DNA from: Candidatus Lokiarchaeum ossiferum
GTDB lineage: Archaea > Asgardarchaeota > Lokiarchaeia > Sigyniarchaeales > Promethearchaeaceae
Assembly (NCBI GenBank): GCA_025839675.1
Contig: CP104013.1
Span: forward strand, 3,041,121-3,105,120
Direction: 5' to 3'
Length of the DNA: 64,000 bases
The position numbers and the translations under genes were made by a program. The notes beneath the pieces are model-generated. The model was given only the letters and a program-made list of their open reading frames with translations, was not told the DNA's origin and did not search any database. Shown one piece after another: positions 9,215 through 47,798 of the stretch (its first letter is position 1; each line of letters opens with the position of its first letter).

Positions 9215-9233
9215 TAGAAGAGTGAAAATCAGA

Positions 9234-10952: not shown

Positions 10953-11011
10953 ACAAACAAGTTTATTTGAAAATATACCTTTTTTAAATTTATTCAAACT
11001 TTGGTGTGTAA

Positions 11012-28865: not shown

Positions 28866-30119
28866 TTATAAAATTGACATCATATCCTTTAAAGTGCGTG
28901 ATACCAGGAAAAGTTGAATATTTCGGCTCCCTCCAATCACTTCTTGCACTTTACTTACCTCAAGTGCTTTATCCACCCGTAAATTATCGGTAAATGCAAT
29001 TCCTCCGCAAATATGTTGGGTTTCATAAGCAATACGATGAGCAAGGTTTGAGGTTAAGAATTTTGTCCCGGAGCTGAACGCGGCATTATATTTGACGAAT
29101 TTTTGATCTGGATATTTCAATAACTTTCGATATTCAATACCCGTTGTAAGTCCGAGAACTGTGGCAGACATCAATTCTGTGAATAGTTTTGTAATTGGAA
29201 AAGACACACCTTGATTATTAAATATGGGTTTTCCAAATTGTTGGCGATTATTGGTATAAATAAGCGAAGTAATAGCTGTAAGCCAACCTATTCCTAAACT
29301 AGAGCCAATAATAGTATCCCGTTCGGCAACTAAACCGGTGAATAAGTTTTTGTAACCTTGTCCTCGCCCACCAATAATGTTTTCTTTGGGCACTTTCACA
29401 TTACTAAAAATTGTTTGACCAATTTCCACTCGAGGAACAGAATTGATTCCAAGTCGATGAGTTTCTAATCCTTTAAAATCCCTTTCTATTATGCCTTGAT
29501 ACATGGTTCCCCGAGGATTCGTTACATCGGATACCCCATAGGCAATAAAATAATCCGCTACAGGTCCATTGGTAGTATATACTTTCTCCCCATTAAACAC
29601 CAAGTGATCATTATTATCTTGAACCGTAGTTTTCATGTTGACCGCATCGGATCCTTGAGTGCGTTCGGTAATACAAATACAGCCGACTTTTCGACCAGAG
29701 ATTGTTTCGGCAAGGATTTCTTGTGCTCGATCCGTACTGCCATGTTGAAAGATTGGATTGGTAAAAATTAACCCAGAGACAACTCGAGCGAGATCTAATT
29801 CAGGATCCATGATTGTAGTGGCCATTGCGAGAAGCAATTCATAACGCATCCCATAATGTTCCATATCCCCAAATTTATTCAATCGTTGCATATAGTTCTT
29901 TTTACCCAATATTGGAAAAAGATCATAGACTTCTTTGGAATAATCCAGTTTGGGCTCTATTTCTTTCAACAAAAAATCTTCTAATTCATAGAGAAATGCC
30001 CGCTCTTCCTCCGTTATTAGAGGTGTTATAAAATTATTGAAAATCTTGTAAATATTTTTAGTAGAGAGTTTCTTCTTTATCTCCCCATCCAATATATCAA
30101 CGCCAGTCATGATGTCCAT
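28866..30119 (-). CDS. acyl-CoA dehydrogenase family protein
   Basis: ACAD C-terminal helical domain (GGIAFTDNLRVDKALEVSKVQEVIGGSRNIQ), catalytic-base region, 417 aa. Confidence 0.8.
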   Translation of the reverse strand: MDIMTGVDILDGEIKKKLSTKNIYKIFNNFITPLITEEERAFLYELEDFLLKEIEPKLDYSKEVYDLFPILGKKNYMQRLNKFGDMEHYGMRYELLLAMATTIMDPELDLARVVSGLIFTNPIFQHGSTDRAQEILAETISGRKVGCICITERTQGSDAVNMKTTVQDNNDHLVFNGEKVYTTNGPVADYFIAYGVSDVTNPRGTMYQGIIERDFKGLETHRLGINSVPRVEIGQTIFSNVKVPKENIIGGRGQGYKNLFTGLVAERDTIIGSSLGIGWLTAITSLIYTNNRQQFGKPIFNNQGVSFPITKLFTELMSATVLGLTTGIEYRKLLKYPDQKFVKYNAAFSSGTKFLTSNLAHRIAYETQHICGGIAFTDNLRVDKALEVSKVQEVIGGSRNIQLFLVSRTLKDMMSIL

Positions 30120-30141: not shown

Positions 30142-30990
30142 TTAAAGACCATCCATCTTTCCCCCATTAATCGGAATAATGGCTCCATTCATGAAATATC
30201 CTCCTTCACTGCAAAGAAAACATACAGGATCACTCACATAAGATGTTTTTCCAATTCCAAACGGAATTCTACCCTCATAATAACTTCGGAATTTACCATC
30301 ATCCTTCTTTAAGAGGTTTCCAATAATTGGAGTTTCAATCAAAGTTGGTTTTAGTGCATGGGTTCGAATATTATATCTCGCGAGTTCTTTTGCCATGGTA
30401 AGCGTCATCCCTATAACCCCTGCTTTGGAAGCAGAATATGCTAATTGCCCTGCATTTCCTTCAGCAGCTAAGGAAGCCACGTGAATGACTACACGTGGTT
30501 TATTATCTAGAGTTGGAAGGTATTTTTCTCCTTTTTCTTTCGCCTTGGCACGGGAAAGATTCACCCATTTTGTAACCACTGCTTGAGAGCAAATCGCAGC
30601 CCCTTTCAAATTCACTTCCATGGTTAGATCCCATTTTGCTTCATCAAAACGACTGACTAGGAAATCACGTAAAATTCCAGCACAATTAACCAAAAAATCG
30701 ATATCTCCTATTTTATTGAAAATTGCATCAACCGAGGCATCAACAAAGACTTTATCAGATACAGAACCGTGGAAGAATAAGATTTCTTTGTTAGTAATTG
30801 CTTTTAATTTTTCAACCGCTTCATTTCCCATTTCTTGGTTTAAATCAATAATGGCGACATTAGCACCATTTTCAGCCATATCGGTGGCGATTTTCAGTCC
30901 TATTCCTGAGGCTCCACCAGTAATTAATATAGTTTTTCCTTCAAAATTCCATTTCATCGAATTTACCTTACCTGTCAAGGATTTAATCAA
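30142..30990 (-). CDS. SDR-family oxidoreductase (3-oxoacyl/3-hydroxyacyl reductase-like)
   Basis: TGGASGIGL cofactor motif, NCAG, catalytic YSASK. Confidence 0.8.
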   Translation of the reverse strand: MIKSLTGKVNSMKWNFEGKTILITGGASGIGLKIATDMAENGANVAIIDLNQEMGNEAVEKLKAITNKEILFFHGSVSDKVFVDASVDAIFNKIGDIDFLVNCAGILRDFLVSRFDEAKWDLTMEVNLKGAAICSQAVVTKWVNLSRAKAKEKGEKYLPTLDNKPRVVIHVASLAAEGNAGQLAYSASKAGVIGMTLTMAKELARYNIRTHALKPTLIETPIIGNLLKKDDGKFRSYYEGRIPFGIGKTSYVSDPVCFLCSEGGYFMNGAIIPINGGKMDGL

Positions 30991-31177: not shown

Positions 31178-32833
31178 TTATATCATCGATGTTTGTTTCT
31201 TTTGACCATAGGGATTAATATCACCCATGGGAACAAAAATTTTTGAATCAGTCGGCAAAATCACCGTTTTTTCGACATTTTGAAAAGATTTAACTTGTTG
31301 TAATCGCAGATATTCTTCTGTTGTAGAACTTTCAAGTAATAAGAGAGTATTTTTCAAATGTAGTTCCTCTCCTTGATTAACTATAGATTCTCGCATTTGA
31401 ATGGATTCCATTTCCCCTCGTGTTCGCTCTATTGAGGCTTCAGCTTCAATTTTAGCATTTCCGATCTCTTTAAATTTAAAATTTGCCAGTTCCTTCTCAT
31501 ATAATGCTTGTTTTGTATCTTCTATTTCGATTCGTCCTTCCACCAATTGCCGTTCCGCTTCTAATTGAGCAGTTTGTTGAATTTTATTCACATATACATC
31601 CATATTGGATTTAATGGCGGCATTGAGTTGATTCGCAATTTCAGCATCTTGAGGTAGGATTTTCTTAATATCAAGCCCGAAGATCTCGAAATAATTTTCA
31701 TCAAAACGAAAATAGGTAAGATCATGCTTGAAAAGAACAGGTTCGATTAATTCAGCAGCTTTAGAATGAAATTCTTCAAAATTGTGTTGGGCAGCTTCTT
31801 GTCGGATGATGCTAGCCATGGTTTCGGTCGCATATCCGATAAAATCTTCCACCGCAAAAATTTTTTTCAAGTTTTTGGGATCTATATTGAACCGGGTTTT
31901 ATATCTAAGATGAATCAATAACTCCGCATTATCTTTGGTTCTCACACATAGCTGATCAGAAACGAACATTGGACCCAAAAAAATCTTCCATTTAGTCAAG
32001 ATATTTGGCATCTTGGGGGTTTTACCACTAATAATCAATGTTTTAAGCCGATCAAAGGGTTCTAACAAGAGCATTTTTGGTCCTATTTCTACTCGTTGTG
32101 TTTCACCAGAATTGATCATGGCAATTTCTTCCGTTTCTAATTTCAAAGGTATAGCCCGGGATGCATCAATTTGAACTCCAAGGATCTTTAAGGCTCTTTG
32201 TTCCGCGATTGAATAGTGCTTATAATAGAGTTCTTCAAAGGGAGTCAACATCAGAGTTTGAGGTCCCTTCTCTAAACGAACTTGCCCTGTATTAAAATTC
32301 TTTATATATAGGCCATCTTGTGCACCTAAACTAATTGCCTCTATTTCCTTCTCAATTTTGGTGTATATATGCGGATAATATATCATGGGTCCTTTTCTCA
32401 TCCAGATATCCCCCGCTTTGTGCATTATTTCATCTTCCCGATAATCTTGTATACATCTGATAATAAGTCCTCTATCATGGGCCAGAACATAATTATTGTA
32501 AATTTTTCCGTCTTCCAGTATTTCTCCAGGATATAATGAAAATATACATGGCCCTTGCCGAATCTCGCGCACACCATGTTTAATAATTCGCTTCTTTGAG
32601 TCATGAGGATTGATTATAGTAGCATATTGCCCTTCTTTTATTATTATTTTTTCTCGAATAGTTCCATATAGTTTTTTCCACCACAGATATTTTATTCTTC
32701 GGTACGGTCCTTCAATAAGGTTGACTTGACCGGTAAATTTGTTGATAACATGGCAATATTCCAATTCTGTGAGAATTAATGTCGATATTTTGTGCGTTTT
32801 TGCTGGGGAGGAAAGTTTTTTCATTGTACACAC
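31178..32833 (-). CDS. major vault protein (MVP) homolog, truncated form
   Basis: About 55-aa repeats. [54 protein letters not shown] matches the human MVP repeat [91 protein letters not shown] matches the MVP shoulder [38 protein letters not shown] (human sequence recalled from memory). C-terminal coiled coil. Confidence 0.6.
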   Translation of the reverse strand: [551 protein letters not shown]

Positions 32834-32949: not shown

Positions 32950-33681
32950 ATGATATATCAAGAACGAGTCCATGTTATTCCTGTTGGTGATGATGATGTT
33001 GATAGAATCGTAATTCCTGCCATTCAAGGGAAGGCTGATAAGGTGTACTTGGTCACTATGGACGATAAAGATTTGTTCCAAACTATCGTTCAAGAAGCGG
33101 AATCTCGTCTCAGAGATTTAAGGATTGAGGTAATCGTCAAACGTTGCAATTTGGAAAGCTTTAGTGATTTTATTTTAGAAATTGCCCGCATCATTAAGTC
33201 TGAGATAGACAAGAAAAACATACTAAACTATAGTATATCTACCGGAGGGAATCTTGCCGCAGCTGCTGGAATGTTAGCTTGTCTTCTATTTCAAATTCGG
33301 CCGTATTTTATTAAAAAAGATTTTTCTATTGGGAAAATATCTAAAGAGCAGTTGAATATTCCATTATACCATATGGATGTGCCTGGAAAACCCCTTATAT
33401 TATTTCTAAATGATATGAAAACTGAAATGGATAACCATGGTACCACCTCAATTTCCAAGAAGGATTGCTTGGAGCTCATGAAAAGACGTCACCCAGATGA
33501 AATTTTCTCATCTACTTCTGGTGAATATAATAAACTCAAGTTCCGCTATTTGGACAAACTTCTTGGTAATCATTTCATTGATATTGAAAGTAAAGTTCGC
33601 GGAAGAATCTCAATTACCTCTGAAGGACTGTTTGCTTGGGATTTCTTCACTATTTATTACAACGTTTCATCAAGAAATTAG
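32950..33681 (+). CDS. putative transcriptional regulator (HFX_2341/CARF-like Rossmann domain + C-terminal wHTH-like region)
   Basis: The N-terminus VHVIPVGDDDVDRIVIPAI resembles the VHIVPVGFEYDRV opening of archaeal HFX_2341-type/CARF-like regulators (memory-based). Divergent from the MVP gene. Confidence 0.35.
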   Translation: MIYQERVHVIPVGDDDVDRIVIPAIQGKADKVYLVTMDDKDLFQTIVQEAESRLRDLRIEVIVKRCNLESFSDFILEIARIIKSEIDKKNILNYSISTGGNLAAAAGMLACLLFQIRPYFIKKDFSIGKISKEQLNIPLYHMDVPGKPLILFLNDMKTEMDNHGTTSISKKDCLELMKRRHPDEIFSSTSGEYNKLKFRYLDKLLGNHFIDIESKVRGRISITSEGLFAWDFFTIYYNVSSRN

Positions 33682-33855
33682 GATCCCCATCATCTATTCA
33701 ATGGAGCTGAAATTCAAAAAAAAAGATGTTTTTCCAAATAAGACTGTCTGAATTACGAATTTCTTTTAACAATCTTAAATTAATAGCATGTTCTTCGACC
33801 TATTTACAAAGATTATATTTGGAGGGAGTGGTTTAACACAATTGGAGATATTTTT

Positions 33856-34293
33856 ATGAAATCAATAATCCGAATGCGAATGTCCATGCATGATGCCCAT
33901 TATGGTGGGAATTTAGTTGATGGCGCGAAAATGCTTAATCTTTTTGGTGATGTTGCCACAGAGTTGCTAATTCGAAATGATGGTGATGAAGGTCTTTTCC
34001 GAGCTTATGACAATGTTGAGTTCTTAGCCCCCGTTTATGCAGGCGATTACATTGAAGCCACGGGTGAAATTATTGGAATCGGCAATAGTTCCCGGAAGAT
34101 GCAGTTCGAAGCTCGCAAAGTAATTATTCCTCGACCGGATTTAAATGATAGTGCTTGTGATGTGCTCACAGAACCTATTGTTGTTTGTCGTGCCAGTGGA
34201 ACTTGTGTTGTACCGAAAAACAAGCAGCGAAATTTGATTCCAATATCCCAATCTACAGTACCAACTTCCCCTAGTGGTTTAGCATTTAAATAG
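33856..34293 (+). CDS. kal: 3-aminobutyryl-CoA ammonia-lyase (hot-dog fold)
   Basis: [62 protein letters not shown] closely matches bacterial Kal as recalled. 145 aa. Confidence 0.75.
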
Positions 34294-37200
34294 CTTCGAT
34301 ACTCGATGATGGAGGGTTTCTTCATTCAATTGTTTTTTTTCTTGTAATTCACCACAAATCTTCTTAAAATCTAACCAAATAACTGTAGTTAGTTTGCTCC
34401 TAATTTTTGGATATAAATTCTCAATCACCTCATACATACATATTTGTTCCGCCATGGAATAAGTCTGGTATCTTTTTTTTGGTAGAAATAGAGGTATTTC
34501 TAGATAATCTTGATTATTTTTCGCTAGAAAGAATGGTTGTTTTCGAGAAATATTTAGAAGTTTACTAATGTCCTTTTCATAATAAATATCATATGGGATA
34601 ATGGGAGTGATATAAAAGTCGAGATGATAAGATTCTAAGATTGAATAGAGTTTATCATATAAAATTTGTACATTTTCACGCAAATGCAAAAAAATAACCA
34701 ATTTTTGAGCGTCATTCTGGGAATTTTTAGTATAAAGTATTTGTCCAGTGGGTAGTTGTTCTACCAAGGCTCGAATTTCTTTTTCTCTTGTTTGAGAATC
34801 CTCAATGATTAGGCACATAGTGAATGGATAGCCGATTATTTGCCAGAATTCCCATTTAAAAAACCGAGGTTGATACAAGATATTATTGTTGAAAAGGAGT
34901 TGAACTTCAGTTTCAGAAAGATCTTGATTAGTTTGATATTTTTTGAGCATCGCTTTGAGATCCTCAGATAAAGTGTGAAAACTATAGTCATAGTGAATCT
35001 CATGTGGATTGACAAAAAACTCAGCATCTTTTTTCTTCACTTTTTTTAATAGTAAATAATTCTGATACCGCCAATCCAGAGGATAGAGAGCATGTTCATT
35101 AAAAAAACGTCTTTCTTCAGTTAATTCATGAGAGTGTAAGCTAATTTGAAATTTTAATTTAATATTTTTAATCAATCGTTGAAAATTTGAGTTTTGATCA
35201 TAATATATTTGTTCTGGAAGGTAATATTCTAAAATTAAAAACCCATTCTCATTCCCACCAAAATAATAGCAATTTTCAAGACCAAGCATTAATAAACCCT
35301 TCAGTAATTCATCTTTCTGAAAAATAAGTGGATTGATTCCTCTATTAGGTGGTTTGATGAAGATAAATATTCTCTTCATTTTTGAGATTGGTGGATAAAT
35401 TTTAAGATCTGAAAAGTAATATTGTGTAATCTCATTTAGATCATTTGAAAATTTTCCAACAATGGAGGAGTATATGTTATTATTTAAAACACAGCGATTT
35501 AGGAATATTTTTTTAAAAATCGATTGGATCTTTGTACGATTTAAACCTAAGGTCTTGGAAAAACTATTCAATTGATTAAAATAGTTTAAATTTTTGAATA
35601 AATAATTATAGTTAAATTTACTTTTAATAGAGCACTTTTGATTAAAATTTGTATTCAAATGCAGATTTTTGCTTGGTATTATTCGAGTGACTCGTTTTTT
35701 TGCTTCGTTAATTAAAAAATCAAGATTAAAACTTTCTAAATTCCATTCTTGTTTATTGTAATTAAAAAAGGTAATCATGGAAGGATCGAATGCTTTTGAG
35801 AAGTTTCTGTAAAGAATTGACAAAGAATCAATGTTTTCTAACAAAAGTAACTTAGATATGATTAAAAAGGAAGATATGTTTGCAAATATACCTTTATGAT
35901 GCATTATTTTTCTATATGGTAGAACTTGTTGAAATTTTATTGACACAAATAGGAGAAATACCTCATCGATCCAATCCAATTTATATTTGCTTAAAATAAA
36001 AAATTTTATCACCTCCTTGTGTGAATTAAAAAATGAATTAATGGCCATTATCTTCGAATTTCTTAATAAATCATTGTATATTAGAGAGATAAACTTGTTT
36101 TCAATGATTTGGAAAGAATGATTTTTGACTTGAGAAAAATTTCTTTTAATATCAGCTAAAGTTGGGAATAAGTCAATCTCTAAATCTAATTTTTCAATTG
36201 ATTCTGTACTCGTAAATCCGAAAAATTCTATCAATTTGAGAAGCTTAATTTCATTCTTATTTTCATAGCTTTGATTTTTATAATATTTGAAAATTTCATT
36301 CAATGAGGAAAACCGTTGAAAAACCTTATCTTGATTAAGATGGATGAAAGTTTTTTTCAATTGACTAAAATTTGGATAATTTTTAATTAAAACAGGAAAC
36401 TCACTCGTTTTAATGGTTAGTTTGATGAATTTCAAAAATTCTCTCATTGTTTTAAATTCTTGAAGTTTTGAAAGGAGCATACGTGAATTGAAGAATAGAA
36501 ATAAATCTAAAGAATCAATTTCGATCTTGTCGGATAATTTACTGCCATTTGCATAAAAAAGTTCTGAATTATGTGAAATTTTCTGGTTAAATGAATTTTT
36601 TCTTTTTTCATTGATTTTGGAAAAATATTTTTTAGAATTAAAGGGAAAGATCGAAAGAATGTTTGTTTCACTTGAAATTTTTGAATTATAATTAATATTA
36701 TAGTTCGCTTTTTTAATTTCTAATAAGTTATAACTAATTATGTATCCACTTTCCTTTAATGAATTAAGAAATTTCGCTAAAAAATTAAGAGAATTTCGAG
36801 GAAGGATGGAATAAAGGAATAAATCATATCCTTCCTTCCTAATAATATTAACGTATGGTATTTTATGGATAATTTTTTTTATAAATTTATTCTGATCGAT
36901 TCCATTAGCAAGAATTATGTTGACGTAGTAAATACCAAGATTGAGATTATTATATTGATTAACAACAAAATAATTTAAAATCATACTTCCAGTGTAAATT
37001 TCAGAATTGGAGCCTTTCCTATTTAGAAGAAGATCCCTATTCGATTTATGGAGATTTTTCTTAATAAAGCCTAAATTGATATTTTTTCCGATATAATTTC
37101 CATAGGTATAAAATAACCCTTGAATAAAATCATGGGTACTGATATTCTCTGATAAAAATGGAATAAAAGTCTTAAAAACAATTTCTAGAGATATATTTTG

Positions 37201-37599
37201 AAGAAAATTCTCGATAAATGAGAGATAAACCATCGAATTATTTATGATCCCTGAAAAATGATCCAAAATCTCTTGATAAATTGGCTTTAATTCAAATAAT
37301 TCATTGTTTTTAAAATGGAGAAGAAATATAAAAGAAATGATATTTCTGTTGTCTAAATATCTTTCATCCATGAAACTGATAATAGAAGCAAATTCTACCA
37401 ATTGAATATAATTGTCCTTGTAATTCGAATGAAGATGGATAGATTCACTCAATAATAACCCAAAGTTTTTTTGAAAATTAGAAATTTCATTAGGATCACT
37501 ATGAAATAAAATATTTTTAAAAATGAAATTAGGAATTCTTTCGAATAGAAGCTCATATTTTGAGATATATTGAAGATATTTTTCGTATAAAATTCCCAT
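34279..37599 (-). CDS. large (1106 aa) low-complexity N/K/I/F-rich hypothetical protein
   Basis: A 3.3-kb stop-free frame in AT-rich DNA is unlikely by chance. No recognisable domain. Its 3' end overlaps kal convergently by 15 nt. Confidence 0.5.
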
Positions 37600-37757
37600 T
37601 GACTGTTAATTACTGATTCATCTGGAAAGAAAAATCTTTCTATGAAAAATATATGATTTTAAAAATATTGACTTAATTAATTAATGAGAAAAATGTATGA
37701 AAAAACCCTTATTACGATTAATTTTTTGCAGTTTTCCATTCGTGAGGTGAATGATAA

Positions 37758-37793
37758 ATGAATGTTCCAAACGATGTACAACTCCCACAATAA
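37758..37793 (+). CDS. micro-ORF MNVPNDVQLPQ (11 codons) behind strong SD GAGGTGA
   Basis: SD at 37744-37750, 7-nt spacer, then ATG. A paralogous copy lies 380 bp downstream. Too short for the ORF track. Confidence 0.15.
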   Translation: MNVPNDVQLPQ

Positions 37794-37797
37794 AAAA

Positions 37798-37864
37798 AAT
37801 GTCCTTTAAAAACCAATTAGATCAAAAAATCTAAGAATGTCCTTTAAAAACCAAGTAGATCAAA
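37798..37864 (+). repeat. 38-bp tandem direct repeat (2 copies, 28/29 identical)
   Basis: AATGTCCTTTAAAAACCAATTAGATCAAA at 37798-37826 and AATGTCCTTTAAAAACCAAGTAGATCAAA at 37836-37864. Confidence 0.5.
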
Positions 37865-38137
37865 TCTACTTTTTTTAAAGTTCATTTGGTTAAACTTGTT
37901 GAATAATGAAGGGGTATTGAAATCAATTTTAATATACGTATTCATATTTATAGAGATTTTGAAGATATTTTTCGTATAAAATTCACGTTGACTGTTAATT
38001 ACTGAATCGTTAAATTAAAAAAGTGTTTCGAAATATTTTGAGTTTATATACTCAAATCTAAAAAATATCTGAGAAAAATGCATAATCCTAATTGTCCGGA
38101 AAATAATCCTGTTTTCTAACTTTGAGGTGACATGTTA

Positions 38138-38170
38138 AATGAAAATACCGAATGATGTATTTACTCCTTA
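38138..38170 (+). CDS. micro-ORF MKIPNDVFTP (10 codons) behind strong SD GAGGTGA
   Basis: SD at 38124-38130, then ATG at 38138. Paralog of the 37758 micro-ORF with synonymous changes at Pro and Asn codons. Confidence 0.15.
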
Positions 38171-38463
38171 AAAAATTAACTAATTGATTTCCCATGCAAT
38201 TTTGATGGAATAGATTTGATTAAATTGCTTGAAACTCAAATAGAATGAATTCTTTTCTTTTCAATATATCTTTATTTCAAATTCAATATTCATTTATCGT
38301 CTTAAAATCAATTTTTTTCAATTATATGAAATGAATCATTTCTGTTCCCCCTTTTTTTTTACTAAATTACCTATCTTTTCTCTTTAGCTAAAAATTAGAT
38401 CACATTTTTAATCGAATACAATATAAACAAAATTATTGCATTTTTACTCATGAGGTGATACCA

Positions 38464-39708
38464 ATGGTAGAAAAATTAAAACTTGAAAAATCCGAACAAT
38501 ATTACAAAGAAGCTCTTGAAGTAATTCCAGGTGCCATTTTGGGAATACGTAGACCCTATAATTTTGTTGTAGGTGAATATCCTATCTTTTTTGAAAGCGC
38601 TGATGGTGGAAAAGTGAAAGATGTTGATGGAAATGAATATATCGATATGCTTTGTGCATATGGACCTATTATCATAGGGCATAAGGAAAAAGAGATTGAT
38701 GATGCAGTTATTGCTCAGATACAGAATAAAGGATTCTGTTTCTCCCTTACCCAAGAAATCCAAAATAAACTGGCAAAAAAACTTACCGAATTGATCCCAT
38801 CATGTGAAAAAAGTGTGTTTGTGAAAACAGGATCAGACGCAACCACAACGGCAGTTAGAGTCGCACGAGGATATACAGATCGAACAAAAATTTTGCGCTG
38901 TGGCTATCATGGATGGCATGATTGGTGTGTAGAAGTAAAGGGTGGAGTTCTCCCAAAGACTTATGAGGATGTAATCGAATTTGAATATAACAATTTAGAG
39001 CAGGTAAAAGAATTATTTGAAAAGTATGGACCTGAAATAGCTGGAGTTATCATTACTCCAGTAGGACACCCTCTTGCACATGAAGTAGAGATGCCAAAAC
39101 AGGGATTTTTGGAAGGTATTCGAGAGATTACAGAAAAAAATGGAACTGTACTCATTTTTGATGAGATTCGGAGCGGATTTCGAGTGAATTTGGGCGGAGC
39201 CCAAAAAGAATTTGGAGTTACACCCGATATGTCCGTCTTTGGGAAAGCGATTGCCAATGGCTATCCTATTGGTGTGGTGGTAGGTAAAAGCGAATTTATG
39301 GATGTATTAGCAGACAAAGTGTTTTTAAGTTCCACATTCTTCCCAAACAGTTTGGCTCAAGTCGCTGCGCTGAAAACCATTGAAATTATGGAACGAGATA
39401 AGATTTTGGATGTGATCAGAGAAAAAGGGACAAAATTCGGAGCTATGATTGAAAAAATCATCAAAGAAAGCGGAATTGCGTGTACTTTTTCCGGTGCTCC
39501 TTGGATGCCCTTTATCACCTTTGATCATGATCCTAACAAGTTATATAAGAAATTGCGGAATGAATTCTATACCCGTTTAATCCGTCGAGGTGTTTTCCTC
39601 CAACCATATCATCATGGTTACATTGCTTACCGTCATTCCGAGGAGGATTTAGAATATGTGGCAAAAGTTATCAAAGAATCTCTAGAAGAATTAAAACAAT
39701 TTCTATAA
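38464..39708 (+). CDS. class-III aminotransferase of the glutamate-1-semialdehyde 2,1-aminomutase (HemL) family; candidate acyl-CoA beta-transaminase (Kat-like) or hemL
   Basis: VIPGAILG...DVDGNEYID...TGSDATTTAVRVARGYT...GYHGWHD...IFDEIRSGFRV...FGKAIANGYPIG (PLP-Lys in FGK) is colinear with HemL. The ATG at 38464 lies 6 nt after SD GAGGTGA; the track's 38455 is a GTG. Confidence 0.75.
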   Translation: MVEKLKLEKSEQYYKEALEVIPGAILGIRRPYNFVVGEYPIFFESADGGKVKDVDGNEYIDMLCAYGPIIIGHKEKEIDDAVIAQIQNKGFCFSLTQEIQNKLAKKLTELIPSCEKSVFVKTGSDATTTAVRVARGYTDRTKILRCGYHGWHDWCVEVKGGVLPKTYEDVIEFEYNNLEQVKELFEKYGPEIAGVIITPVGHPLAHEVEMPKQGFLEGIREITEKNGTVLIFDEIRSGFRVNLGGAQKEFGVTPDMSVFGKAIANGYPIGVVVGKSEFMDVLADKVFLSSTFFPNSLAQVAALKTIEIMERDKILDVIREKGTKFGAMIEKIIKESGIACTFSGAPWMPFITFDHDPNKLYKKLRNEFYTRLIRRGVFLQPYHHGYIAYRHSEEDLEYVAKVIKESLEELKQFL

Positions 39709-39819
39709 TTTGTGTTGAGTTTCCAGTTTTTTACAATTTTTTTTAATAACAAAAACCAGTTCAAATCCTTTTCTAAGAAAGAAATATGTGTTTAATAAAA
39801 AGTCCATATTAGTAATCAT

Positions 39820-40641
39820 ATGGAAAAATTGATCATAACCGCAGCGATAAGCGGTGCAGAAGTGATGAAGGAACATAACCCAGCGGTTCCATACACAATT
39901 GAAGAAATTGGAAGAGAAGCAGAATCAGCCTATAAAGCGGGAGCAAGTATCATTCATTTACATGTGCGAAATGATGATGGAACTCCTACCCAAGATAAAG
40001 CACGATTTCAAGCTTGTATGGAGGAAATTCGAAAACGTTGCTCAGATGTTATAATCCAACCTTCGACCGGTGGGGCAGTAGGAATGACCGATGATGAACG
40101 TTTACAACCGACAGAGTTATCTCCAGAAATGGCCACCCTCGATTGTGGAACCTGTAATTTTGGAGGGGATGATATTTTTGTCAATTCAGAAAACACCATT
40201 AAAAATTTCGCCATAAAGATAAAAGAACGCGGAATCAAACCCGAATGCGAATGTTTTGAAAAGGGACATATTGACATGGCCATTAAAATGCACAAGAAAG
40301 GATTGATTGATGCCCCAATGCACTTTAATATGGTGTTAGGAGTTTCAGGAGCAATGAGTGCCACCCCTCGAGATTTGACGTTTATGGTAGATAGTATTCC
40401 TTTGGGCTCAACCTTCACTGTATGCGCGATGGGGCGATATCAAATGCAAATGGCCGCAATTTCAATAGTACTCGGCGGACATGTTCGAGTGGGTTTTGAG
40501 GACAATGTCTATATTTCTCGAGGAGTGCTCGCCAAATCAAATGGAGAATTGGTGGAAAAAGCAGTTAGAATTGCAAAAGAGTTAGGGCGAGAAATTGCAA
40601 CTCCTGCCGAAACTCGAAAAATACTGGGATTAGTAAAGTAA
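39820..40641 (+). CDS. kce: 3-keto-5-aminohexanoate cleavage enzyme (BKACE/DUF849 TIM barrel)
   Basis: IITAAISGAE...IIHLHVRNDDG...PSTGGAVG...RVGFEDN with zinc ligands H-H-E conserved. Near-colinear with bacterial Kce as recalled. Confidence 0.8.
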   Translation: MEKLIITAAISGAEVMKEHNPAVPYTIEEIGREAESAYKAGASIIHLHVRNDDGTPTQDKARFQACMEEIRKRCSDVIIQPSTGGAVGMTDDERLQPTELSPEMATLDCGTCNFGGDDIFVNSENTIKNFAIKIKERGIKPECECFEKGHIDMAIKMHKKGLIDAPMHFNMVLGVSGAMSATPRDLTFMVDSIPLGSTFTVCAMGRYQMQMAAISIVLGGHVRVGFEDNVYISRGVLAKSNGELVEKAVRIAKELGREIATPAETRKILGLVK

Positions 40642-40647
40642 AAAAAA

Positions 40648-42297
40648 TTATAAGATTTCAATTTTTTGGCGATTTTTTGATGAATAAGACTTTTTCTTCT
40701 TATTCCCATTTCGATTCTTACGTCTTTTGGATTTAGCTAAATTAGTTGAACCACTCCGTTTTGGGGCTTCACTCACTTTTAAGGTAGAAGCTCGTTTAGG
40801 AGAAGAACTTCGTTTAGGAGCAACACTTACTTTTGGAGCATTTGAATTACTTGGAGGCGCCATTCCTTTTGGAGCATCATTCTTTTTGTAAGCATCAGAG
40901 CGTTTCGACCCATTATTTCGTTTTGGAGCTTCGCTTCGCTTAGGATTACCACTTCGTTGTGAAAAACTCTTTCTCTTTGGGAAATTAGAAGGAGAGGATT
41001 TATTACGTCTCTGTTTAGACCCATTTCGGTTTTTGCGGCGATCAGATTTTGCTTTGTTGGGGGATTTTTTCGTATCAGGAGTGGTAAACCATTCTGGGAC
41101 TTCAGGTTTTTCAATTTTAGGAAGCACTACTTTATTAGTTGGATCATCAACCGAACGACGTTCTATATCATACTTCAATAATTTTTCAATTTTGAACATT
41201 AACTCCCGTTGATTCATGGCAACAATAGACACGGCTTTTCCATTGTCAACATTTTTCTCAATACCTGCAGTTCGGGCAGTTCTTCCAATTCGATGAACAT
41301 AATCTTCTGGATCGCGAGGTAAATCATAGTTGAACACATGAGATACTTTTGGAAAATCCAAACCTCGGGCAAGGACATTAGTAGCAACTAAACAATTTAA
41401 TTTATGTTCCCGGAATTTAGCGACTGTTTCTTCACGCTTTGCCTGTGTTAAATCACCGTGAATAAAACCCGCTTTAAGATTAAAGTTAAGACCAAGCTCC
41501 GCATTCAATCTACGGCAAAGTTCTTGGGTTTTACGTTTAGTTTTAGTAAAGATTATGGAAAACTCAGGAAGTTCATTATTTAAGATTTTCACAAAATTCC
41601 AGAACTTATTTTTATCAACGTAATAAGCATATTGATCACAATTTTCGACAGTTAAGGAATCTTTACTCACATCAATTTCATGAACAGTATCATTTTTCGT
41701 AAATTTATAAATCAATTTTTTAATTTCTTCCAACAATGTGGCCGAAAATAGGAATAATCGAGGTGAGACATTACGCATGGCATCCAACAATAGAAAGCGG
41801 ATATCCGGGAAGAATCCCATATCAAGCATTCGATCTGCTTCATCCAACGCAACGAAGTTAACACATTTAAAATTCACTTCTCCTTGGCGGACTAAATCAA
41901 TTAACCGTCCAGGAGTGGCAACTAATACTTGGCCCCCATTTTTAATTTGCTCGATTTGGAGACGAATCGAAGCTCCGCCATACACTTCTACGATTTTGAC
42001 TTTTTTATACGTGGTGATGGAACGGAACACTGAGGCATTTTGTTTGCATAATTCCCGAGTAGGAACTAAGATGACTGCTTGGATATGACGATTTTTCAAA
42101 TCAATTTTTTCAATGATGGGGATCGCAAAGGCTAAAGTTTTCCCAGATCCTGTTTTTGCTTGACCTATAACATGGGATTTTCGTATAGAAAGCCCGTGGG
42201 GAATGCTTTTTTCTTGGATTTCGGTTGGAGAAGCAATGTGATTGTCTTCTAGCGCCCGAATAATTTTTGGACTAATGTCCATTTCTTTAAATAACAT
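40648..42297 (-). CDS. DEAD-box ATP-dependent RNA helicase with C-terminal basic low-complexity tail
   Basis: Q-motif, AKTGSGKT, PTRELC, DEAD (LDEADRML), SAT, HRIGRTAR. The C-terminal 170 aa is rich in K/R/S/N/P with APKR(S/N) repeats. Confidence 0.85.
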   Translation of the reverse strand: MLFKEMDISPKIIRALEDNHIASPTEIQEKSIPHGLSIRKSHVIGQAKTGSGKTLAFAIPIIEKIDLKNRHIQAVILVPTRELCKQNASVFRSITTYKKVKIVEVYGGASIRLQIEQIKNGGQVLVATPGRLIDLVRQGEVNFKCVNFVALDEADRMLDMGFFPDIRFLLLDAMRNVSPRLFLFSATLLEEIKKLIYKFTKNDTVHEIDVSKDSLTVENCDQYAYYVDKNKFWNFVKILNNELPEFSIIFTKTKRKTQELCRRLNAELGLNFNLKAGFIHGDLTQAKREETVAKFREHKLNCLVATNVLARGLDFPKVSHVFNYDLPRDPEDYVHRIGRTARTAGIEKNVDNGKAVSIVAMNQRELMFKIEKLLKYDIERRSVDDPTNKVVLPKIEKPEVPEWFTTPDTKKSPNKAKSDRRKNRNGSKQRRNKSSPSNFPKRKSFSQRSGNPKRSEAPKRNNGSKRSDAYKKNDAPKGMAPPSNSNAPKVSVAPKRSSSPKRASTLKVSEAPKRSGSTNLAKSKRRKNRNGNKKKKSYSSKNRQKIEIL

Positions 42298-42442: not shown

Positions 42443-43126
42443 TTAAGCGGTGATGGGGGAACCATCATCCATTCGTTTAAGTTGGGGTGACACTTGATAA
42501 TCAGCTTCCGTATATTTACGAATTTCGTCCAGCGAAGAATCTTTCTGAATTTCTTTTAAAATCAAACCTTGGGGTGTTACTTCAAATAAACCAAATTCGG
42601 TAATGATTTTATCAACAACTTTAGCTCCAGTGAGCGGTAAAGAACATTTTTTCAAAATTTTTGGGGATCCTTTGGCTGTATGGAACATAGCAACAATAAC
42701 TTGCTTAGCCCCTGTCACGAGATCCATTGCCCCACCCATCCCCGGAATAAATTTTCCCGGAACGGCCCAATTTGCCAAATTTCCCTCTTGATCTACTTCA
42801 AAAGCGCCCAAAATGGTGGAATCCAAATGACCTCCACGAACTATTCCAAAGGAGGTTGGACTGTCAAAATAAGAACCATAATCTTCAATGGTGACATAAA
42901 CACCACCAGCATTAGTCAAGTCTTTATCAATAGCTTCTGAAGGAGCATCTGCACCCATCCCAACCAACCCATTTTCGGAATGGAAAATGACATTAACATC
43001 CTTAGATATAAATTGAGGGACCATCATGGGAACTCCAAAACCTAAATTGACGACTTGGCCATCCTTTAATTCTTTAGCTACACGCTTGGCAATAACAATG
43101 TTGGCTTCTTTTCTGTCGTTGATCAC
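42443..43126 (-). CDS. atoA: 3-oxoacid/acetate CoA-transferase subunit B
   Basis: SENGLVGMG catalytic-Glu motif; 227 aa; start overlaps subunit A stop. Confidence 0.8.
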   Translation of the reverse strand: MINDRKEANIVIAKRVAKELKDGQVVNLGFGVPMMVPQFISKDVNVIFHSENGLVGMGADAPSEAIDKDLTNAGGVYVTIEDYGSYFDSPTSFGIVRGGHLDSTILGAFEVDQEGNLANWAVPGKFIPGMGGAMDLVTGAKQVIVAMFHTAKGSPKILKKCSLPLTGAKVVDKIITEFGLFEVTPQGLILKEIQKDSSLDEIRKYTEADYQVSPQLKRMDDGSPITA

Positions 43127-43782
43127 TATGCAACAACTCCTTCTATGATATAATTAACAAAAATGCCTGGGGTATGAACAATATCTTTGTCAATTTCGCC
43201 GACTTTTACTAATTCTTGAGCTTCGCATATTGTGATATCAGCAGCCATTGCTACAGTAGGATTATAATTTCGGGTAGATTTGCTGTAAAAGACATTTCCG
43301 AACTCATCAACCTTGGTACCTTTGATAATTGCCAAATCGGCTCTCAATGGCGGTTCTAAAATGAATTCTTGTCCATCGACTGATATTTTTTGTTTACCTT
43401 CTTCAACAGGAGTACCAATTCCAGTTGGGGTTAAAATACCCCCTAAACCAAATCCTTGGGCTCGAATCTTTTCAATCAAAGTTCCCTGTGGATAAAATTC
43501 AACTTCCATAAGTCCTGCATTGAGGCATCGTTTAGATTCAGGATTGGTTCCAACGTGGGAACATATAACTTTTTTAATGATACCTTTGCCAACCAAGCGG
43601 CCAACACCGCGATCTGGAAAGGCAGTATCATTGACAATAATAGTAAGATCTTTTAATTTTAATTCCATAATAAGATCGATTAGTCGTTCAGGCGCTCCAC
43701 AGCCTAAAAATCCACCAACCATGATAGTCATACCATCTTTAAAGAGAGGCTTTATCGTTTCTAAATCAACAACTTTTTTCAT
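43126..43782 (-). CDS. atoD: 3-oxoacid/acetate CoA-transferase subunit A
   Basis: GMTIMVGGFLGCGAPE N-terminal motif of family I CoA-transferase alpha; 218 aa. Confidence 0.8.
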   Translation of the reverse strand: MKKVVDLETIKPLFKDGMTIMVGGFLGCGAPERLIDLIMELKLKDLTIIVNDTAFPDRGVGRLVGKGIIKKVICSHVGTNPESKRCLNAGLMEVEFYPQGTLIEKIRAQGFGLGGILTPTGIGTPVEEGKQKISVDGQEFILEPPLRADLAIIKGTKVDEFGNVFYSKSTRNYNPTVAMAADITICEAQELVKVGEIDKDIVHTPGIFVNYIIEGVVA

Positions 43783-44028: not shown

Positions 44029-44466
44029 TTACTTTTGAGGTTCAAATCCAACGTCCCATCGATATAAGGGATTGCCTTCTTTGTCAACACCGATTTCAGC
44101 TCTCAAAAATGTGACTTGAACAGCCATGTCAATTGTAATTTTATCTGGTTGAGTTTCATCAACCCCAATCAATTGTCCCGCCACACTGGGTCCTTCTTCC
44201 ATCTGACAGACAGCAAAGACGTAAGGTTTCTTCCGATTATAACCTTTATCCATCATAGCCTTGGACCCTACATATATCGAAGAGAAGGTTTTAAGTGCAC
44301 CTTTTCCCGATAATTCGATCCATTCAGCTTCCGATAAACATTCAGAGCAAAGTCTTCGGGGAGGTAAATCAATCTGATTGCAATGAGGACATTTTGAAGC
44401 CATCAACTTTTTTTCGGCAAGATATTTAAAATAATTGTTAACAGTGATCATATTTTCGTTTGACAT
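44029..44466 (-). CDS. DUF35 zinc-ribbon/OB-fold protein (thiolase-HMGCS scaffold)
   Basis: CPHCNQIDLPPRRLCSECL rubredoxin-like Zn ribbon followed by an OB fold. Immediately downstream of the thiolase. Confidence 0.7.
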   Translation of the reverse strand: MSNENMITVNNYFKYLAEKKLMASKCPHCNQIDLPPRRLCSECLSEAEWIELSGKGALKTFSSIYVGSKAMMDKGYNRKKPYVFAVCQMEEGPSVAGQLIGVDETQPDKITIDMAVQVTFLRAEIGVDKEGNPLYRWDVGFEPQK

Positions 44467-44478
44467 AATAAAACACTC

Positions 44479-45753
44479 CTATAGTTTCTCCTTAGTCATG
44501 ATGGTGACCGTGGCTGTAGCCCCTGATCCACCCAAATTTTGAGCAAGCCCTACTTTTAAATCACCTTGAACTTGCCGATTTCGTTCGGCTTTTCCTGCAA
44601 GTTGTTTATAGATTTCCACAATTTGAGAAGCCCCTGTTGCACCCACAGGATGACCTTTAGTTTTTAGGCCTCCACTAGTATTAATGGGCCGTTTTCCATC
44701 CCGCTTGGTTTCCCCATTTGCAATAGCTTTAACAGCTTCACCAGGTTTATAAAAACCAAGATCTTCAAGAGCAACTAATTCAGCAATGGTGAAACAATCA
44801 TGAACTTCAGCAATTTGGATATCTTCTGGTGTTAACCCAGCCATATCATACGCTTGTCGAGCTGCTTCTTTGGTAGCATCAAAAGTGGTCAATTTTCCAT
44901 CTTTGCGATCATGCAAACTGAGAGAAGCGCTTCCTTGTCCAATACCACTTACCCAAATCGGATGATCGGTGAATTTATAAGCTAGTTCTTCCGAAGCTAA
45001 AAATATAATGGCTGCTCCATCTGTCACTAAGCTACAATCAAAGAGACGTAAAGGAGAAGCAATCATGGGATTTTTGGATGATTCTAGAAACTCGTATTCA
45101 TCCTTCCAATTTGGAACAGGTTGGCCGCGTTTTTTCGCTTTTTCAATCGCTTTAGCCATAACTTCAGGAATGGTGCTTTGAACATGCGCAAACGGATTTT
45201 CCTTTCCATTTTCATAATTTTTTATTGCTATATTCATAAGATCTTTAGAAGTGGTTCCATATTTATGAAAATGTGCCGTGGCGACTGCAGCATAAAGTCC
45301 TGGAAAAGTGGCCCCTGCATAATATTCATAGGTTGTATCAGCAGCAGCAGCTAAGGCACTGGTCACCCCTGCCGTATTAAGCTCATTCATTTGTTCCACC
45401 CCTCCAACACAAACCACATCATTCATCCCTGAAGCAATACTCATTACAGCATGACGGAAAGCAATTCCACTACTGGCACAAGCCGCTTCAAACCGAGAAG
45501 ATGGTTTTGGAGAGAGTCCAATTAAATTTGCCATTAAAGGAGCTAGATGCCCTTGATGATTAAACAAATCAGCAGTAAAATTACCCAAAAAGAGCTCATC
45601 AATATCTTCAGGTTTAATTCCCTTATCAGTTAATTTAACCGCTTCTAACCATGCTTCCTGCCACATGTCTATCATACGCATTTTTGGATAATTAAACCCG
45701 AATTTTGACATTCCGGCTCCAACAATTGCAACTTTTCGTGCTAGTTTTCCCAT
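44479..45753 (-). CDS. acetyl-CoA C-acetyltransferase (archaeal SCP-x-type thiolase)
   Basis: Thiolase-fold Cys (FEAACASSGIAF) and C-terminal catalytic His/Cys region (EVHDCFT...GHPVGATG). Confidence 0.8.
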   Translation of the reverse strand: MGKLARKVAIVGAGMSKFGFNYPKMRMIDMWQEAWLEAVKLTDKGIKPEDIDELFLGNFTADLFNHQGHLAPLMANLIGLSPKPSSRFEAACASSGIAFRHAVMSIASGMNDVVCVGGVEQMNELNTAGVTSALAAAADTTYEYYAGATFPGLYAAVATAHFHKYGTTSKDLMNIAIKNYENGKENPFAHVQSTIPEVMAKAIEKAKKRGQPVPNWKDEYEFLESSKNPMIASPLRLFDCSLVTDGAAIIFLASEELAYKFTDHPIWVSGIGQGSASLSLHDRKDGKLTTFDATKEAARQAYDMAGLTPEDIQIAEVHDCFTIAELVALEDLGFYKPGEAVKAIANGETKRDGKRPINTSGGLKTKGHPVGATGASQIVEIYKQLAGKAERNRQVQGDLKVGLAQNLGGSGATATVTIMTKEKL

Positions 45754-45928
45754 ACAAATTTCACTTTTATAACCAAAATTGAATATTCTAAAGTAATTTT
45801 TTAGGTAAATTGAAAAAATTTGGTTCGAAAGCTAACTGATAATGACATAACCCACAGAAATCCGTTTAGAAGAAAAAGATGAGAGTCAATGAAATTGTGA
45901 TGAAGAACAAGAATAGAGAAAAAAGAAA

Positions 45929-46014
45929 TGGCGCGGCGGAAGGGATTTGAACCCTCGCGCCTCGAAAGGCACTGGATTAGCAGTCCAGCTTCGTAACCAC
46001 TTGAATACCGCCGC
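45929..46014 (-). tRNA. tRNA-Ser (anticodon GCU), long variable arm, CCA encoded
   Basis: Folded by hand from the reverse complement: acceptor GCGGCGG/CCGCCGC, anticodon stem CUGGA/UCCAG with loop CUGCUAA, long variable arm GCCUUUCGAGGC, T-arm GAGGG-UUCAAAU-CCCUU, discriminator G then CCA. Confidence 0.85.
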
Positions 46015-46142
46015 CTAGTTTCAGATAAAAATTTCTATTTTTTAAAATGCGGCAAATTAAAAAAAATTTTCGTTTTTTGAGTTTACCTAAGCAACTGTAC
46101 TATTTTTTTGAAGGGTAACTATAATTTTGGGCTACAAAAAAC

Positions 46143-46150
46143 TATATAAA
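46143..46150 (+). promoter_or_regulatory. TATA-box candidate for HMG-CoA synthase gene (leaderless-type spacing)
   Basis: TATATAAA about 26 nt upstream of the ATG at 46176; no SD. Confidence 0.25.
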
Positions 46151-46175
46151 ATAACCACTTCATAATATTATTAAT

Positions 46176-47798
46176 ATGATGTCTGATGGATTTTTCAAGA
46201 ATGTCGGTATTGATTCCATTGGCTTCTATACACCTCAATTTTATTTGGATCTTGATGATTTGGCAATAAATCGTAAGATAGATCCCAAAAAATTTCGCGA
46301 TGGGTTGCTTCTTCATGAAATGCGGATTCCAGACCCCAATGAAGATTGTGTTACTATGTCAGTTAAGGCGGCGCAAAATGCCTTAATTCGGGGACAAGTC
46401 GATCCAAAAACAATAGATGCTATATTCGTAGGAACGGAAACAATCACATATGCTGTGAAATCTGTTTCGAACATTTTAGCAGATATTTTGGGCGTATCGC
46501 CGAATTCAATAACCCAAGATATTTATAACGCTTGTGCTGGTGCAACTTTAGCAATTTTAAATGCTATTGCTATGATTGAAAATGGTATTATAAATAAAGC
46601 CCTTGTGATTGGAGTTGATATAAGTTCTTATGATATGCATTCTCCTGGAGAACCTACCCAAGGGGCTGGAGCAGTGGCATTAATTCTGACTAAAAATCCT
46701 CGTATCGCCGCCTTCAGTCATAAATTTGGAAAAGTTTCTGGAAATGTGAATGACTTTTATCGAGCAGCGGGACAAAAAAATGCTAAAGTATTTGGTAAAT
46801 ATTCCGTAGATTCTTATTTAAATTTTCAAATGGCAGCTTTTGATGATCTAAACAAACACATAGGGGAGATTCAAGCAGATTACTATGCATTCCATGCCCC
46901 CTTTTCAAAACTACCAGTCAAATTTGTTCAAAAATTAATTGTGGAACGGTCTCAACATTTTGTAAATTATATTCTCAATTCTAACCCAAAACCTCCCCGA
47001 TCTCGATTAACGAGCAAACTTCCTTCTATTCGTTACAGTCTGAAGCATTTTCCATCTCTTATTTCCAAAATTTTACTTCAGAATGGATATTCCCGCAGTG
47101 TTATCGATACTGTCCTTCAAAAAGCCTCACATTATCGAGAGCATTTCTTTCCACACTTGAATGTTCCCATGCATTTTGGCAATATGTATTCGGCCAGTGT
47201 CTGGGCACAAATTAATTATATTTTAGAAAATCATTCGCATTCAAATGATGTAATTTATTTCGGATCCTATGGATCAGGTGCAACTTGTATATCTGGTTTA
47301 CTCAAGGTTATGCCAAAATTCGATTCAGTCTTAAAAAACTATCCTAAAGTTGAGGATTACATCCAAAACAAAGTTAGACGAACTTATGAAGAGTATGAAT
47401 TAATTAAAATGGGAAGATTTCATACAACGCTTTCTTATGGCCAGATTATTCCTCATGAAATAAACAATAATCGTGGAATTGAACTTCATTATTGCGATGA
47501 AGGTTGTCTTATTGCATCCCATGAAGGATTAAATCGATGTCCACAAGGCCATTCTGGTAATCATAAGATATTTTATCCCCTTTACGCATTATTAACCACC
47601 GATCCTATAGAAAATTATGATTTTACTGACACTACACCCTTATTTCAAGGAAATGTTAGGATATTGGGAAAACCAAAAAAAGGAATGCTTTTGGAATATG
47701 ATATGCGTCGGGTTCAGATTAAAATCAAGGATCATGTCAATGCTGAAGGATTGTTAAACTGGGTTCCAACCTACGTGCCAAATTCGCATACTTATTAA
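46176..47798 (+). CDS. hydroxymethylglutaryl-CoA synthase, long (bacterial/eukaryotic-like) form
   Basis: Active-site Cys in YNACAGAT, GAGAVAL, GNMYSASV and SYGSGAT motifs colinear with eukaryotic/bacterial HMGCS. 540 aa with a Cys/His-rich C-terminal extension of about 150-190 aa. Confidence 0.8.
   Translation: MMSDGFFKNVGIDSIGFYTPQFYLDLDDLAINRKIDPKKFRDGLLLHEMRIPDPNEDCVTMSVKAAQNALIRGQVDPKTIDAIFVGTETITYAVKSVSNILADILGVSPNSITQDIYNACAGATLAILNAIAMIENGIINKALVIGVDISSYDMHSPGEPTQGAGAVALILTKNPRIAAFSHKFGKVSGNVNDFYRAAGQKNAKVFGKYSVDSYLNFQMAAFDDLNKHIGEIQADYYAFHAPFSKLPVKFVQKLIVERSQHFVNYILNSNPKPPRSRLTSKLPSIRYSLKHFPSLISKILLQNGYSRSVIDTVLQKASHYREHFFPHLNVPMHFGNMYSASVWAQINYILENHSHSNDVIYFGSYGSGATCISGLLKVMPKFDSVLKNYPKVEDYIQNKVRRTYEEYELIKMGRFHTTLSYGQIIPHEINNNRGIELHYCDEGCLIASHEGLNRCPQGHSGNHKIFYPLYALLTTDPIENYDFTDTTPLFQGNVRILGKPKKGMLLEYDMRRVQIKIKDHVNAEGLLNWVPTYVPNSHTY

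Follow-up and report, generated by a model that had tools for sequence, protein, structure and literature searches.

By which route does an Asgard archaeon dispose of the 3-aminobutyryl-coenzyme A (CoA) formed during lysine fermentation? This question is raised by a 64-kb stretch of Candidatus Lokiarchaeum ossiferum (contig CP104013.1, positions 3,041,121 to 3,105,120, approximately 33% GC; hereafter the window), which contains kal, encoding an ammonia lyase for 3-aminobutyryl-CoA, as well as kce and a gene for a class-III aminotransferase that GenBank and UniRef name HemL (glutamate-1-semialdehyde 2,1-aminomutase, GSAM). The initial annotation had asked whether there are two alternative routes for 3-aminobutyryl-CoA, and had named as options redundancy, switching between NH3 release and transamination, or simply a hemL gene. 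Our sequence comparisons indicate that the GenBank label HemL on 38464-39708 is a misannotation and that the gene very probably encodes an ortholog of Kat, the 3-aminobutyryl-CoA:2-oxoglutarate aminotransferase. The overall reading that we favour, and regard as likely, is that this predicted Kat ortholog and Kal provide two working exits from 3-aminobutyryl-CoA. The features on which the question turns are the following.

33856-34293, plus strand: kal, ammonia lyase acting on 3-aminobutyryl-CoA, 145 aa (NF052388, PF03061)
34279-37599, minus strand: orphan open reading frame (ORF) of 1106 aa between kal and kat, without Pfam or NCBIfam match
38452-38459, plus strand: Shine-Dalgarno sequence GAGGTGAT, read from the sequence, with a 4-nt spacer to the kat ATG
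38464-39708, plus strand: kat, 414 aa, probable ortholog of 3-aminobutyryl-CoA:2-oxoglutarate aminotransferase (CLOAM0809 identity, motifs, HemL scores below cutoff, kce adjacency)
39820-40641, plus strand: kce (NF052387, PF05853), product 3-aminobutyryl-CoA plus acetoacetate

All three genes on which the initial annotation was built are present. Kal scored 201.3 bits on the NCBIfam model NF052388 (cutoff 160) and also matched the hotdog family PF03061, and Kce scored 448 bits on NF052387 (cutoff 382) and 367 bits on PF05853. Both genes had been placed next to kce, but this holds only for the aminotransferase gene, whose stop codon lies 111 bp upstream of the kce start. kal is located 5.5 kb upstream of kce and 4.2 kb upstream of kat, and not directly 5' of kce as is usual; the opposite-strand orphan ORF and kat lie in between. 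When ORFs were called mechanically, the aminotransferase ORF spanned 38455-39708 (plus strand) with a GTG start at 38455. This GTG falls within the Shine-Dalgarno sequence, indicating that the true start is the ATG at 38464, in agreement with the 414-aa GenBank protein. The strong Shine-Dalgarno sequence recognized earlier is thus real.

The initial annotation had stated that Kat replaces Kal in some bacterial lysine clusters, and this has indeed been described. A hemL-annotated gene occupied the kal position in lysine clusters of a digester metagenome, and CLOAM0809 of Ca. Cloacimonas acidaminovorans was identified as a 3-aminobutyryl-CoA:2-oxoglutarate aminotransferase, EC 2.6.1.111 (Perret 2011, PMC3149608). 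Kat requires a CoA or N-acetylcysteamine (NAC) thioester; CLOAM0809 has a Km of 4.3 µM for the CoA ester and shows no activity with free beta-amino acids (PMC3149608). We took sequence P0388 as CLOAM0809, as it is encoded on CU466930.1 (Ca. Cloacimonas acidaminovorans Evry) and adjoins a thiolase, as described by Perret 2011.

Aligned with CLOAM0809 over 414/414 residues, the window protein shows 67% identity and 80% similarity without any gap, which supports the Kat option. We aligned 79 full-length members of the Kat family, both bacterial and archaeal. Identities to the other Kat-like sequences are 63-72% (median 67%) for the window protein and 61-100% (median 66%) for CLOAM0809. The identities of the window protein are therefore inside the normal spread of the family, indicating a typical member. 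Among the 79 sequences, 116 columns are at least 98% conserved, and all 116 are present in the window protein. The conserved motifs GIRRPYNFVxGEYP, YHGWHDW, DEIRSGFR, GKAxANGY, FLSSTFFPNS and QPYHHGY are found, as are the Schiff-base lysine K261 (FGKA) and the pyridoxal phosphate (PLP)-binding aspartate D233 (FDEIR), both of which are invariant in the alignment. An AlphaFold model of the window protein (predicted local distance difference test, pLDDT, 84.9) has low confidence only at two Kat-specific loops, residues 26-33 and 149-163. It adopts a GSAM-like fold, with template modelling (TM) scores of 0.85-0.90 to GSAM structures at 29-35% identity. No solved structure exists for a Kat, and structure prediction and fold search contributed little to the assignment.

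Could the gene nevertheless be simply hemL, that is, a divergent archaeal GSAM supplying 5-aminolevulinate for the synthesis of tetrapyrroles or cobalamin? As KamDE depends on B12, this is plausible in principle. GSAMs are moreover the best Protein Data Bank (PDB) matches by sequence and by fold, both databases name the protein HemL, and for this class-III aminotransferase (PF00202, 179 bits) the top NCBIfam matches are GSAM models. However, every one of these matches is below its cutoff. On TIGR00713 (cutoff 527), the window protein scored 289 bits and the characterized Kat scored alike (272 bits), whereas the E. coli HemL control reached 684 bits; on NF000818 (cutoff 398), the window protein scored 295 bits and the control 719 bits. 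In an alignment with three authentic GSAMs, identity was 33-38%, far from the value obtained with Kat.

The differences extend to the residues characteristic of GSAM. The N-terminal region, which the initial annotation had described as atypical for HemL, indeed reads GIRRPYNFVVGE where GSAMs carry NSPVRAFKSVGG, so that SPVRAF is replaced by IRRPYNF. The GSAM motif FEAG corresponds to YHHG, with the glutamate changed to an invariant histidine. Both the SPVRAF motif and the FEAG glutamate have functional roles in GSAM, and the GSAM gating loop is needed to retain the diaminovalerate intermediate. In the gating-loop region, the window protein shows a 12-residue deletion and a further 2-residue deletion, and reads YHGWHDWCVEVKGGVLPK. 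No tetrapyrrole gene (hem or cob) is located anywhere in the window. Regarding a true hemL elsewhere, we found nothing usable in the literature on Asgard tetrapyrrole synthesis. In addition, we inspected 80 loci of kat homologs (63-72% identical to the window protein) and 80 metagenomic kal loci, each with 10 kb on either side. The kat homologs belonged to Cloacimonadota, Bacteroidales, Elusimicrobia, Bdellovibrionota and eight Asgard metagenome-assembled genomes, and 44 of the 80 were linked to lysine-fermentation genes (kce, kdd, kam). Some homologs already bear the name '3-aminobutanoyl-CoA transaminase' in the automatic annotation of JGI. The protein does not cluster with HemL, and we consider the hemL option essentially refuted.

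By analogy with the characterized homolog, the Lokiarchaeum enzyme is predicted to use 3-aminobutyryl-CoA as substrate and 2-oxoglutarate as amino acceptor. It might instead be a Kat-family paralog that acts on another beta-aminoacyl-CoA, or that aminates a beta-keto-thioester in reverse, leaving 3-aminobutyryl-CoA to Kal. In vitro, Kat also takes beta-homoleucyl and beta-phenylalanyl thioesters (PMC3149608). Approximately 36 of the 80 homolog loci lack lysine genes within 10 kb, and the same fold group contains beta-keto-thioester aminotransferase domains of polyketide synthases and nonribosomal peptide synthetases (PKS/NRPS). In L167, a relative with 81% Kat identity, kat adjoins an alanine dehydrogenase gene and no kce is nearby. 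On the other hand, kat is directly 5' of kce in the window, in a sister Lokiarchaeum contig (L081) and in a Promethearchaeota relative (L169), and 3-aminobutyryl-CoA is the product of Kce. All residues that are invariant in the family, the characterized enzyme included, are kept without insertions or deletions. Moreover, CLOAM0809 itself is also encoded away from a lysine cluster. We therefore give a paralog with another substrate very little credence and retain the assignment as Kat.

In L167, the alanine dehydrogenase-family gene (8872-9975) ends 26 bp upstream of kat (10001-11245), and neither kce nor kal is nearby. This arrangement may reflect a pyruvate/alanine acceptor cycle of the Kat in this relative.

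How unusual is it to find both genes at one locus? kat was located directly upstream of kce in 21 of 72 loci, and kal in 47 of the 63 kal loci with enough downstream sequence. Since both are usually directly upstream of kce, kal and kat occupy the same slot. Within 10 kb, kal was found at none of the 80 kat loci and kat at none of the 80 kal loci; only the window and L081 contain both. With an intact kal, the locus is a hybrid of the two described variants and departs from the kat-type pathway of Perret 2011, which is recognized by the absence of kal. This leaves the membership of the protein in the Kat family unaffected. Both enzymes are ordinary members of characterized families, and only their combination is unusual. 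In the literature searched, we found no paper linking Asgard archaea with lysine fermentation.

The combination is conserved between the two Lokiarchaeum genomes. L081 has the same gene order as the window (short-chain dehydrogenase/reductase (SDR), vault-like, HFX_2341-like, kal, orphan, kat, kce, DEAD helicase, CoA-transferase), with identities of 95% for Kat and 90% for Kal. Between window and L081, the ratio of nonsynonymous to synonymous substitution rates (dN/dS) amounts to 0.04 in both the Kal core and Kce, 0.02 in Kat and 0.015 in AtoA. The low values for kal and kat indicate that both genes are kept by purifying selection. With both genes intact, conserved in the sister genome and under selection, the two routes put forward in the initial annotation are the best-supported reading.

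The opposite view is that the pairing is redundancy without function, a transient genome mosaicism in which one gene, most likely kal, is a passenger of horizontal gene transfer (HGT). The nearest relatives of the window Kal, 85-92% identical, are found in Clostridia bearing kal-kce-kdd-kam clusters. L169 has kat-kce, and no kal was present in the 9.3 kb upstream. Furthermore, kal adjoins the orphan ORF and a break in DNA synteny with L081, which ends exactly at the kal stop codon and restarts 70 bp upstream of kat. Bacterial Kal ends at KQRK, while the Lokiarchaeum protein continues with a 19-aa C-terminal tail (34234-34293) that is conserved only 58% in the sister genome. In view of its poor conservation, the tail appears to have arisen by read-through once the original stop codon had been lost. 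Against a passenger role, the kal DNA is only 73-74% identical to that of Clostridium kal, so the transfer must be old. The gene has been kept in two Lokiarchaeum genomes at a synonymous divergence (dS) of approximately 0.5, with its core constrained as strongly as kce, and it has its own Shine-Dalgarno-like GGAG 7 nt 5' of the ATG. We therefore regard a functionless kal as unlikely, and a functional pair as the better explanation.

Two proposals on the origin of these genes were rejected. The identity of 90-92% to Clostridium Kal suggested recent HGT of kal; however, Kal is slow-evolving, with 80 ± 2% identity between clusters in which the other proteins reach 60-72%, and the DNA identity is too low. 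An arrival of kce together with kal was suggested by a neighbor-joining tree in which 57 of 60 bootstraps grouped the Kce of the window with Kce proteins linked to kal. This was given up after examination of L169, whose Kat is 77%, Kce 80% and thiolase 80% identical to the window proteins. Since L169 is kat-linked and carries the most similar Kce, the earlier inference was a sampling artefact. The most economical reading is that an ancestral kat-kce lineage later gained a bacterial-type kal. We hold this reading only moderately, because the contigs are short.

The segment between kal and kat is variable. The orphan ORF has 24-30% GC, is rich in Asn, Lys, Ile and Phe, and overlaps the kal stop codon with its 3' end by 15 bp. 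Its homolog in L081 (1125 aa) is only 29% identical and located at the same place in opposite orientation. The orphan is outside the lysine pathway and marks the variable segment. A 64-bp direct repeat with 91% identity (37553-37616 and 37942-38005) places a copy of the start-codon region of the orphan ORF in the 850-bp AT-rich spacer upstream of kat, and is probably the scar of a rearrangement or inversion. On the other side of kal, an HFX_2341_N/DUF6293-like gene (32950-33681, plus strand) shares 96.7% DNA identity with the L081 copy (dS 0.05, dN/dS 0.57), while the flanking genes have dS values of 0.5-1.3. This segment looks like it was recently exchanged or converted. An Rfam scan (E ≤ 1) of 33000-41000 revealed no regulatory RNA or riboswitch.

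What would the two exits mean for lysine fermentation? The cluster is divided into two blocks on opposite strands. The remaining genes that may take part are listed below, all of them on the minus strand.

19108-19896, minus strand: kamE, above NCBIfam equivalog cutoff
19897-21489, minus strand: kamD, above NCBIfam equivalog cutoff
21464-22984, minus strand: kamC, above NCBIfam equivalog cutoff
22971-24029, minus strand: kamB, above NCBIfam equivalog cutoff
24080-25348, minus strand: kamA, above NCBIfam equivalog cutoff
25423-26556, minus strand: kdd, above NCBIfam equivalog cutoff
28866-30119, minus strand: acyl-CoA dehydrogenase (Pfam Acyl-CoA_dh_1/M; NCBIfam matches weak, below cutoff)
30142-30990, minus strand: SDR oxidoreductase (Pfam adh_short; NCBIfam matches weak, below cutoff)
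42443-43126 (subunit B) and 43126-43782 (subunit A), minus strand: AtoAD-like CoA-transferase (TIGR02428 and TIGR02429 above cutoff; pair syntenic in L081)
44029-44466, minus strand: DUF35/OB partner of the thiolase (PF01796 and PF12172)
44479-45753, minus strand: archaeal thiolase, candidate acetoacetyl-CoA thiolase (NF004720, 443 bits, cutoff 420)

In the proposed pathway, lysine would be converted to 3-keto-5-aminohexanoate by KamA, KamDE (with KamBC as reactivase) and Kdd. Kce would then combine this intermediate with acetyl-CoA to give acetoacetate and 3-aminobutyryl-CoA. At the Kat exit, the beta-amino group would be transferred to 2-oxoglutarate, yielding acetoacetyl-CoA and glutamate. 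Following CoA-transferase and thiolase, acetate would be the only product, with three acetate units and approximately 2 acetyl-CoA net per lysine. This exit would leave 4 [H] per lysine, and the electrons from Kdd and from the re-oxidation of glutamate would have to be exported as H2 or formate. It would therefore suit syntrophic growth and depend on a partner. At the Kal exit, elimination of NH3 would yield crotonyl-CoA, which could be reduced to butyryl-CoA. This would correspond to the classical redox-neutral route to butyrate and acetate, with approximately 1 acetyl-CoA net. The stoichiometries follow Perret 2011 (PMC3149608), Buckel's review and standard biochemistry. The acyl-CoA dehydrogenase and the SDR oxidoreductase are possible downstream enzymes for crotonyl-CoA or 3-hydroxybutyryl-CoA.

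The thiolase gene and its DUF35/OB partner are divergent from an HMG-CoA synthase-like gene (46176-47798, plus strand). The three genes, at 44029-47798, form an archaeal mevalonate-pathway trio beside the lysine-pathway CoA-transferase, and the thiolase may act in both pathways.

In the company of H2 consumers, L. ossiferum grows on peptides and amino acids (PMC9834061). For such an organism, it would be physiologically sensible to choose between an exit that needs a partner and one that does not. We lean towards the view that both exits are used, as far as the genes allow this to be predicted. That they form a redox-controlled switch specifically is a more tentative proposal, which we hold to be possible rather than probable. 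A regulated switch, a partition of flux and a response to H2 pressure or nitrogen status are what we infer from the characterized homolog and textbook stoichiometry.

Several points weigh against the favoured reading. Co-occurrence of kal and kat was scored in the 10 kb on either side of each gene, and not genome-wide; some Thaumarchaeota that otherwise lack the pathway are reported to combine a putative kal and a putative kat in a single genome. In vitro, members of the Kat family are promiscuous toward other beta-aminoacyl thioesters, so the physiological substrate could be broader. Co-regulation is not evident, since the fast-evolving orphan and the synteny break separate kal from kat-kce. 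Genes for glutamate dehydrogenase, Etf, crotonase and hydrogenase are all missing from the window, and both branches are therefore incomplete there. Finally, if crotonyl-CoA were hydrated and oxidized instead of reduced, the branches would be redox-equivalent and the rationale of an H2-dependent switch would be gone. In this case, the branches differ only in the destination of the nitrogen.

The two enzymes may also work in series instead of in parallel. Running backwards, Kat would use glutamate to aminate acetoacetyl-CoA, and NH3 would subsequently be removed by Kal, so that the net reaction would be acetoacetyl-CoA + glutamate → crotonyl-CoA + 2-oxoglutarate + NH3. This may be compatible with the near-equilibrium type of both enzymes and with the conservation of both genes, and it is also compatible with the lack of an hbd or crotonase gene in the window. 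If true, the pair would be a substitute, independent of pyridine nucleotides, for 3-hydroxybutyryl-CoA dehydrogenase, crotonase and glutamate dehydrogenase, and would allow an Asgard archaeon to feed reducing power from any amino acid that is transaminated straight into the formation of butyrate. We consider operation in series rather improbable and prefer two parallel exits.

New here are the re-annotation as Kat of the 'HemL' of L. ossiferum and the hybrid lysine locus with both exits in a cultured Asgard archaeon; L. ossiferum is one of only two. The first corrects a propagated misannotation and applies equally to hundreds of homologs, a large number of which bear the same wrong name. According to the second, a complete pathway of lysine fermentation is encoded in L. 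ossiferum, including both known exits from 3-aminobutyryl-CoA, a pairing found in 0/160 other sampled loci. Provided that both exits are used, L. ossiferum could opt either for a butyrate fermentation that is independent of a partner or for a higher-yield, H2-releasing acetate route, which is relevant to how strict the dependence of Asgard archaea on syntrophy is. Since the biochemistry of each enzyme is already known, the general significance is moderate.

Two further proteins in the window belong to other contexts. A 551-aa protein (31178-32833, minus strand) contains domains of the eukaryote-type major vault protein (MVP_shoulder with 92 bits, Vault, Vault_3 and Vault_2 repeats). It is conserved in L081 at 939-2570 and is a possible Asgard vault-protein homolog. 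The other, a typical eukaryotic-signature protein of Asgard archaea with 588 aa (59987-61753, minus strand), combines a Ras/Roc small-GTPase domain at its N-terminus (186 bits) with a zinc ribbon at its C-terminus.

Among known systems, the closest counterpart of the window protein is the Kat CLOAM0809. The two share gapless identity, invariant motifs, sub-threshold HemL scores and a past hemL label, as well as the pathway context of kce, kdd, kamA/DE, AtoAD and thiolase. They differ in their hosts, a bacterium there and an Asgard archaeon here. CLOAM0809 was found through the absence of kal, whereas kal is located 4.2 kb upstream in Lokiarchaeum, where the activity is predicted only. With the classical kal-type cluster of Fusobacterium and Clostridium, the window shares kal, kce, atoAD, kdd, kamA, kamB, kamC, kamD and kamE; the identities to the proteins of Clostridium aciditolerans (L165) are 90% for Kal, 71% for Kce and 73% for KamD. 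In the bacterial clusters of this type, kal is directly 5' of kce and kat is missing, whereas in the window kat fills this slot and kal is displaced.

HemL (PDB 3bs8, 2gsa, 5i92) has in common with the window protein the fold, the Schiff-base lysine, the PLP-binding aspartate and the arginine of the N-terminal motif. Low identity, the shorter gating loop, altered motifs, scores below the cutoffs and another gene context set the window protein apart. The AMT domain of mycosubtilin synthase (PDB 6kfm) and the transaminases MesAT (2yku) and VpAT (4ao9) belong to the same GSAM-like branch of class III and perform beta-amino/beta-keto chemistry. All three are distant from the window protein (E values of 1e-27 to 1e-40, approximately 24-25% identity). 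Like Kat, the AMT domain acts on a phosphopantetheine thioester. MesAT and VpAT are transaminases of free beta-amino acids, which Kat refuses, as it needs the CoA or NAC thioester.

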